Source: a virus (Duplodnaviria > Heunggongvirae > Uroviricota > Caudoviricetes). From it: 40,201 bases of DNA. This document shows positions 24,676 through 25,485 of this stretch, piece after piece (position 1 is the first letter of the stretch; each line of letters opens with the position of its first letter). The notes under the pieces are model-generated. The model was given only the letters and a program-made list of their open reading frames with translations. It did no database searches and had not been told where the DNA came from. Both the position numbers and the translations under genes were made by a program. Location: the IMG/VR virus record IMGVR_UViG_2744054909_000002, positions 1 to 40,201 of that record; one strand, given 5' to 3'.

Positions 24676-25485
24676 CTATTGAGTAACTGATTTCAATGCA
24701 CTGTCTGCATATCCCTCCTGCCGGTGACACTCTTCTACCAGCAATTCGAATAATGGCTGGATGTGGTCATAGGCAGTGGTTTTCTTCACATCCCATGCAG
24801 TGCGGACACCTTCCAGGACACTGGCGAACTTCAGTCGGGCATAACCTCTGCCTGTGCAGCGCTCACAAACTTTCATAACCGGCACGCCCTGCATCTCCGT
24901 TTCTTTCTTGTCCAGTACCTCCCCTTTCCCATGGCAGCGACACGCATTGCTGATAACACCTTTTCCGTTACAGGCTGAGCATAAAACGCGCGCAGTCTCC
25001 CGTACCGACTTCCATTCCTCCCAATAGGACGGGCAAACCCCCTTCGTGATTTTTGCCCATTTAGGCGGTTTCCCATCCGGGTACTGAACTTTATTTGTGA
25101 AAATATCTGCCTCGGTAAAGCCGCCCCCATCGCAACAGTCGCATTTGCGAACGCTTGCCGCACTACGGGCGTAATCCTGATAAGCAAAAGCGCACAGTAT
25201 TTCGAGAACTCGTTGGCGTAATCCTTCATCGAGTTCAGTAACTGGTCTGAAATGTCGTGATATCTCAACGGCTGAACCATATAGAGCCTCCATTGCCCGA
25301 TCCGGGCTGCTGATGCCAATTTTTGCCAGGTAAAGATCGAAACCAAATCCGCACTTAGCATTAACGAGGCCAAGCGCGGCCATCACATCAGTACCAGTGA
25401 GATTGTCTGTAGCTGTTGCCCGCGAGGAGTCACTGAACATCGGGGACTTCGGTGCAAAGTATTTTGCGATTGATTCGAGGTTCAT
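24676..25485 (-). CDS. Putative late-gene regulator, Q-like by position, with four DnaJ-type CxxCxGxG zinc-finger repeats
   Basis: Last gene before lysis cassette; repeats CDCCDGGG, CSACNGKG, CRCHGKG, CERCTGRG; ATG 25485 with GGAG SD, track start is TTG. Confidence 0.45.
   Translation of the reverse strand: MNLESIAKYFAPKSPMFSDSSRATATDNLTGTDVMAALGLVNAKCGFGFDLYLAKIGISSPDRAMEALYGSAVEISRHFRPVTELDEGLRQRVLEILCAFAYQDYARSAASVRKCDCCDGGGFTEADIFTNKVQYPDGKPPKWAKITKGVCPSYWEEWKSVRETARVLCSACNGKGVISNACRCHGKGEVLDKKETEMQGVPVMKVCERCTGRGYARLKFASVLEGVRTAWDVKKTTAYDHIQPLFELLVEECHRQEGYADSALKSVTQ

Follow-up and report, generated by a model that had tools for sequence, protein, structure and literature searches.

A lambda-family Q antiterminator gene of the phi80-type long form, with a second predicted zinc ribbon, in a lambdoid prophage

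The Q protein of phage phi80 was reportedly studied experimentally alongside lambda Q by Guo and Roberts in 2004. Lambda Q itself is a protein of 207 aa with one zinc ribbon and is the only member of its family to have been solved structurally. The Q-lambda family corresponds to PF03589, Q21 to PF06530 and Q82 to PF06323 (PMC9388147). The "arm" of lambda Q is a zinc ribbon formed by residues 114-152, the N-terminal part contributes to the nozzle on the RNA-exit channel, and contacts to the beta' zinc-binding domain of RNA polymerase are made by residues 110-112, 117 and 122-126 (PMC9388147). Structure 7ubn captures Q-lambda within the NusA-containing engaged loading complex.

We examined a stretch of 40,201 nucleotides of viral DNA (IMG/VR record IMGVR_UViG_2744054909_000002, Caudoviricetes), hereafter the window. 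An earlier note had drawn attention to four DnaJ-like cysteine motifs in the product of one of its genes and had suggested that the product might belong to an unusual antiterminator family or be a late regulator of another kind. By homology, the gene is a late-gene antiterminator of the Q-lambda family and of the phi80-type long form. The annotation question can be regarded as settled, with the gene being the Q antiterminator of the prophage. It is also already known in the sense that it belongs to a characterised family and most resembles phi80 Q, which has been studied experimentally.

Genomic setting and family of the Q gene

The coordinates in the earlier note, 24676-25485, match an intact minus-strand ORF of 269 aa, reading from an ATG at 25485 to a TAG stop at 24678-24676. 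The start codon is preceded by GGAG, and homologues of the protein begin with the same Met. The assignment of the gene to the late-antiterminator (Q) position held up as well, as NinG (PF05766, E 1.6e-77) and DUF1367 are encoded upstream and a holin and a lysozyme downstream. The resulting gene order of ninG, ylcG, Q, pR'/tR', holin and lysozyme is that of the nin region-to-lysis slot of a lambdoid (pro)phage, and an identical layout is annotated in a 99.9%-identical prophage that is integrated next to kch in E. coli EC17CM13 (NZ_CP190333.1). The TGA stop of the YlcG-family ORF (46 aa, 25482-25622, minus strand) overlaps the Q start codon as ATGA, and this overlap suggests that ylcG and Q may be translationally coupled. 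Over its length, the window element joins a lambdoid block of early, nin, Q and lysis genes to RecE/RecT and to non-lambda structural genes, which include those for baseplate J/gp47, DUF3383 and DUF2213.

Membership in the family is evident from both sequence and fold. In a Pfam scan, the protein matched PF03589 ("Antitermination protein Q") with 126.4 bits (E 4.8e-37), above the gathering cutoff of 26.7, and DnaJ_CXXCXGXG (PF00684) with 25.5 bits, below the cutoff of 32.7; a search with Q and DnaJ profiles, which the note had put forward as a check, thus came out for Q. The same scan gave no match at E<=0.1 to Q21 (PF06530), Q82 (PF06323) or other antiterminator families. The PHROGs family phrog_127 ("anti-termination protein Q-like") was matched over residues 1-269, which is the full length (E 6.9e-91). 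The best match among PDB sequences was lambda Q in 7ubm (phmmer, E 1.7e-40), with residues 1-115 of the query aligned to lambda Q 1-118 and residues 182-268 to lambda Q 118-206. The homology to lambda Q takes in the N-terminal nozzle segment, the helical body with its helix-turn-helix and the C-terminal helix. Identity to lambda Q was 64%, 37%, 52% and 29% by region and highest over codons 1-44, for which a nozzle role is suggested by homology. Full-length identity was 70.6% to phi80 Q and, marginally higher, 71.4% to the Q protein of Klebsiella phage RCIP0034. More than 100 relatives of 265-283 aa from Enterobacterales bear the source name "antitermination protein (Q)" in a large protein database, and near-identical E. 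coli copies in RefSeq already carry the annotation "antitermination protein". An AF2 model calculated on the family alignment (mean pLDDT 85.7) had 7ubn_Q as its top Foldseek match (E 8.8e-13, TM 0.80, target-normalised), and lambda Q was the only protein among its structural matches. The idea of an atypical family or a different late regulator is not supported by this full-length membership in Q-lambda (PF03589, phrog_127), and phi80 Q, whose Cys pattern is the same, is the kind of confident full-length match to a characterised Q family that the note had named as grounds for refutation. Coordinates of the gene, its parts and its predicted control elements are collected in Table 1.

Table 1. 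Features of the Q gene and of the predicted control region downstream of it (window coordinates)
Feature	Position	Strand	Description and basis
Q antiterminator gene	24676..25485	minus	269 aa; Q-lambda family, phi80-type long form; ORF and homology
N-terminal segment, codons 1-44	25354..25485	minus	Equivalent of the lambda Q nozzle segment; 28/44 identical (64%)
Extra zinc ribbon (predicted), codons 115-176	24958..25143	minus	Knuckle 1, long beta hairpin, knuckle 2; without counterpart in lambda Q
Lambda "arm"-type zinc ribbon (predicted), codons 182-214	24844..24942	minus	Knuckles 3 and 4; 17/33 identical to lambda 118-151
Predicted pR'	24606..24634	minus	-35 TTGTAG 24634-24629, 17-nt spacer, -10 TAGTAT 24611-24606; homology
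QBE-like TTACGGA	24627-24621	minus	Within the predicted pR' spacer
Predicted sigma-dependent pause element	24590..24598	minus	AACGCT then GGG, seven bases past -10
Predicted terminator tR'	24515..24552	minus	12-bp G+C-rich stem and U tract; terminator scan

The predicted pR'-qut-tR' region and a lambda-like mechanism

We compared the DNA downstream of the Q gene with the corresponding regions of other phages. The predicted pR' lines up position by position with the -35, the Q-binding site and the -10 that the phi80 record annotates, and with lambda pR'. Its two hexamers are weak, and a generic sigma70 promoter scan of 23800-24800 returned 0 sites and left the proposed pR' uncalled, so that the assignment rests on the comparison with phi80 and lambda. 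The sigma70-dependent pause element of lambda is AACGAT, and the lambda layout reads TTGACT, 17 nt, TAAATT, 6 nt and AACGAT GGG. The AACGCT-GGG of the window is identical in phi80 and RCIP0034, and AACGAT-GGG occurs in lambda, SEN34 and Stx2_EH1910 at an equal distance from the -10. The pattern TTGnnn, 16-17 nt, TAnnnT, 6-7 nt, AACG[AC]T-GGG is common to the window, lambda, phi80, RCIP0034, SEN34 and Stx2_EH1910; outside lambda and phi80, the qut layout also lies behind the Q genes of RCIP0034, Salmonella phage SEN34 and the Stx2a phage (quuQ). A CGGAA is present in the spacer of five long-form loci (window, phi80, RCIP0034, SEN34 and Edno5). The window does not keep the -35-like TTGACT that lambda has just upstream of its pause element, and reads CGGCTC there. 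The RNA of tR' folds with -26.7 kcal/mol (z = -2.96), and the element is collinear with the terminator annotated in phi80. The complete window gave no match in an Rfam scan, and the short pR'-tR' transcript therefore falls in no curated RNA family. From these alignments, the cognate qut layout of the Q-lambda family is predicted beside the window Q gene. The segment 24515-24634 would be the control region of Q, and late-gene and lysis expression should depend on Q.

Several other features were observed around tR'. A plus-strand ORF of 138 aa (24063-24479) lies between tR' and the holin gene, and late transcripts must traverse it antisense. Its sole match was phrog_1244 (unknown function, E 1.5e-24); scans against Pfam and NCBIfam returned none for it, and its equivalent is labelled hypothetical protein in RefSeq. 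The C-terminus of this ORF has a CPNC...CGSC pattern that resembles a small zinc ribbon. In RCIP0034 (L004 1666-1822), two tRNA genes (Asn and Arg) are located just downstream of Q/pR'/tR', at the place taken in the window by the antisense ORF. A G+C-rich inverted repeat, ggcgagggtagcgcctcgcc (24487-24506), immediately follows the plus-strand ORF, standing back to back with tR', and was not called by the terminator scan because a T run is absent on either strand. Just upstream of the holin gene, a second terminator-like hairpin on the minus strand (23937-23954) consists of GGCTGCCGCTTGGCGGCC followed by a T run, and its position is comparable to that of the second "putative rightward terminator" of phi80.

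The homology to lambda Q allows a mechanism to be proposed. The helical body of the protein, with its helix-turn-helix, and the zinc-ribbon arm would bind the Q-binding element in the pR' spacer (24634-24606, minus strand) while RNA polymerase sits in a sigma70-dependent pause at AACGCT-GGG (24598-24590). As in lambda, Q would then reposition sigma region 4 (PMC9388147) and move to the elongation complex, where the zinc ribbon would touch the beta' zinc-binding domain. The N-terminal segment, together with NusA, would refold to form a nozzle at the RNA-exit channel. With this nozzle in place the polymerase is expected to resist pausing and termination, and it would read past tR' (24552-24515) to transcribe the structural genes and those for holin and lysozyme. 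An invariant D-Y-x-x-S-A-A-S just before knuckle 1 corresponds to lambda Q residues 110-112, and an insert of ~66 residues interrupts the segment that matches the beta' zinc-binding-domain contacts of lambda Q. Because the contact segment is interrupted in this manner, the details of docking on RNA polymerase may differ from those in lambda. Since the insert falls exactly at the contact region, we speculate that the extra ribbon may extend or change the way in which the protein touches RNA polymerase or DNA.

Cysteine motifs, long and short forms, and alternative explanations

All four motif strings quoted in the earlier note were recovered in a regular-expression check, with CDCCDGGG (motif 1) at residue 115, CSACNGKG (motif 2) at 169, CRCHGKG (motif 3) at 182 and CERCTGRG (motif 4) at 207. 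Three of the four are exact CxxCxGxG and motif 3 is one residue shorter, CxCxGxG. In an alignment of 113 homologues that reaches down to 47% identity, all eight Cys (115, 118, 169, 172, 182, 184, 207 and 210) are invariant, as are four Gly (G120, G174, G186 and G188). Judging from this conservation, the Cys motifs of the Q protein are not a chance pattern. The knuckles are separated by 54 (1-2), 13 (2-3) and 25 (3-4) residues. Over 127 four-knuckle proteins of the family, knuckles 1 and 2 lie anywhere from 14 to 63 residues apart, knuckles 2 and 3 are 13 apart in every case, and knuckles 3 and 4 are separated by 23-27; knuckle 3 is CxC in 117 of these proteins. The corresponding spacings in the cysteine-rich domain of E. 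coli DnaJ are about 17, 22 and 14. The DnaJ motif spacing described in the note is therefore correct inside each motif, motif 3 being one residue short, but it does not extend to the distances between motifs.

The note had also regarded the arrangement as different from the zinc-binding arrangement of lambda Q, which the comparison does not support. The lambda Q ribbon is made of two such knuckles, CRDCHGTG and CGRCKGVG, about 26 residues apart, and these align to motifs 3 and 4 with 52% identity, the loop between them being similar as well. Motifs 1 and 2 are borne by the insert relative to lambda Q (~66 residues, roughly 113-178), and the extra ribbon appears as a gap in the alignment to lambda Q. 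Two AF2 models, one of the full length and the other of residues 105-222 alone, were inspected and a hairpin was seen in both. A 12-residue strand (123-134) follows motif 1, a return strand of 12 residues (157-168) runs directly up to motif 2, and the loop between the two strands contains two short helices. Between knuckles 3 and 4, the model has the strand-helix-strand pattern of the lambda arm (PMC9388147).

The origin of the extra ribbon was considered separately. As a candidate duplicate of the lambda-type ribbon it was rejected, since BLASTP of residues 108-181 against 182-269 gave no match and hhalign of the two sub-alignments paired only an 11-column knuckle with a probability of 44%. 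At the sequence level there is no evidence of a recent duplication behind the extra ribbon. The two stretches in which PF03589 is matched were likewise discarded as a domain repeat; lambda Q shows two stretches as well, and they are therefore uninformative on the extra ribbon. No structure or mutational study of this ribbon was found in the searchable literature, which excluded the key phi80 paper.

The family contains both long and short forms. All eight Cys are present in 32 of 49 full-length sequences that were aligned, namely lambda Q, the query and 47 representatives of clusters formed at 50% identity; this sample was seeded with the long-form query and is biased towards long forms. Exactly the first four Cys are missing in five, one of which is lambda Q. 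Two family representatives from outside the window, the long P0134 (269 aa) and the short P0155 (200 aa), make up a natural "deletion mutant" of the extra module. Outside the zinc module their identity is 82%, and the short one is set apart by the neat excision of ~69 residues, which comprises the first zinc ribbon and has its junction at knuckle 3. The neighbour-joining tree suggests that short forms arose more than once. Because the eight-Cys form accounts for 32/49 of the representatives retrieved in this long-form-biased sample, lambda Q may be a trimmed member of its family. That the eight-Cys form is commoner than the lambda form among the representatives retrieved is a modest wider point for those who work on transcription antitermination. 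It is conceivable, if rather doubtful, that the extra ribbon and hairpin make an additional, necessary contact as Q loads, whose partner would be the beta' zinc-binding domain or the spacer CGGAA. If true, the textbook lambda Q model would be a reduced outlier of its own family.

How the knuckles pair bears directly on the DnaJ resemblance. We propose that they probably form two tandem Cys4 ribbons, 1+2 and 3+4, and are not interleaved as in DnaJ. The pairing is argued from the homology of knuckles 3 and 4 to the pair that forms the single, structurally solved zinc ribbon of lambda Q, from the 1-2 hairpin, which is paired with itself in the AF2 models and differs in length among relatives while the other spacings are fixed, and from the short forms, in which Cys 1-4 vanish as one unit. 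Each of these observations speaks against true DnaJ-type interleaved centres (knuckles 1+4 and 2+3), whereby a V-shaped two-zinc module would replace the lambda-type ribbon in the Q scaffold. The DnaJ scores do not favor such a module either, as they are sub-threshold or weak. In a control Pfam scan, DnaJ_CXXCXGXG gave 23.1 bits with the two-knuckle lambda Q, nearly equal to the score of the window Q, and 24.0 bits with phi80 Q, both again sub-threshold. Because lambda Q gives a like score, the DnaJ-like motif belongs to the whole Q-lambda family. We consider an interleaved module improbable. A more radical explanation is that the gene is no antiterminator, and that the Q position happens to be taken by some other late regulator or by a zinc-finger protein of chaperone-like type. 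This would draw on the DnaJ-like motif resemblance only, and the protein has neither a J domain nor DnaJ_C (none at E<=0.1 in the Pfam scan) nor other chaperone domains. It would also have to contend with the homology to lambda Q in full-length sequence and fold, including a nozzle-forming N-terminus that is 64% identical, and with the lambda/phi80-like promoter, pause element and terminator conserved immediately downstream. We find this explanation very hard to credit.

The remaining alternative accepts the gene as a true family member and supposes that its function was lost in the window element, which would then be a decaying prophage remnant. The EC17CM13 prophage lends this some substance. 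Its Q equivalent (L003 20677-21486, NZ_CP190333.1) has a C-to-T change at nucleotide 271 of the gene that turns Gln91 into an amber codon, and is otherwise identical to the window Q gene; RefSeq calls it a pseudogene, as it does a replication gene of that prophage ("internal stop"). As read from that genome, the amber codon shows that the Q gene can be lost in lysogens. The window copy, on the other hand, is an intact ORF of 269 codons in which all family-invariant residues are kept, and its qut and terminator are intact. Loss of function in the window is thus not likely, and we would give it little weight. Taken as a whole, the locus is in our judgment very probably explained by a phi80-type Q that would act by a lambda-like mechanism at pR'-qut-tR' and hold zinc at two tandem Cys4 sites. 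Family membership, the fold, the conservation of the Cys and the conserved qut-like DNA were observed here. From them we infer zinc binding, the pairing of the knuckles, an activity in antitermination and any function that the extra ribbon may have.

Comparison with known systems

The DnaJ cysteine-rich domain (PF00684) and B. subtilis anti-TRAP differ from the window Q in inter-motif spacing. The window Q scores below the Pfam gathering cutoff, is without J or client-binding domains, and has zinc centres that are probably tandem rather than interleaved. Q21 and Q82 have the same regulatory role and genome position as the window Q (PMC9388147), and neither has a detectable sequence match to it at E<=0.1.

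Lambda Q (PDB 4MO1, 7UBJ-7UBN; PF03589) shares with the window Q the family, the fold, the helical body and the type of knuckle, and the lambda gene has the same genomic position and qut layout. Unlike lambda Q, the window Q carries a further ribbon, with its long hairpin, directly ahead of the lambda-type one, and its knuckle 3 is CxC where that of lambda Q is CxxC. In the window, the U tract of the terminator ends about 80 nt from the pause element, much closer than in lambda, where the figure is about 190 nt.

The window differs from phi80 in the plus-strand ORF between tR' and the holin gene. The Q-binding heptamer is TTACGGA in the window and annotated as TCGCGGA in phi80, with two positions differing, and about 30% of the residues differ between the two Q proteins. 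The phi80 Q protein (gene 17, YP_007947979.1) is also 269 aa long, and its four Cys motifs agree with those of the window Q in type and position. The region from Q to the terminator (200 nt after the stop) aligns between phi80 and the window at 79% mean column identity, and the pause element with its flanks (CTCTAACGCTGGGAAT) is identical in the two.
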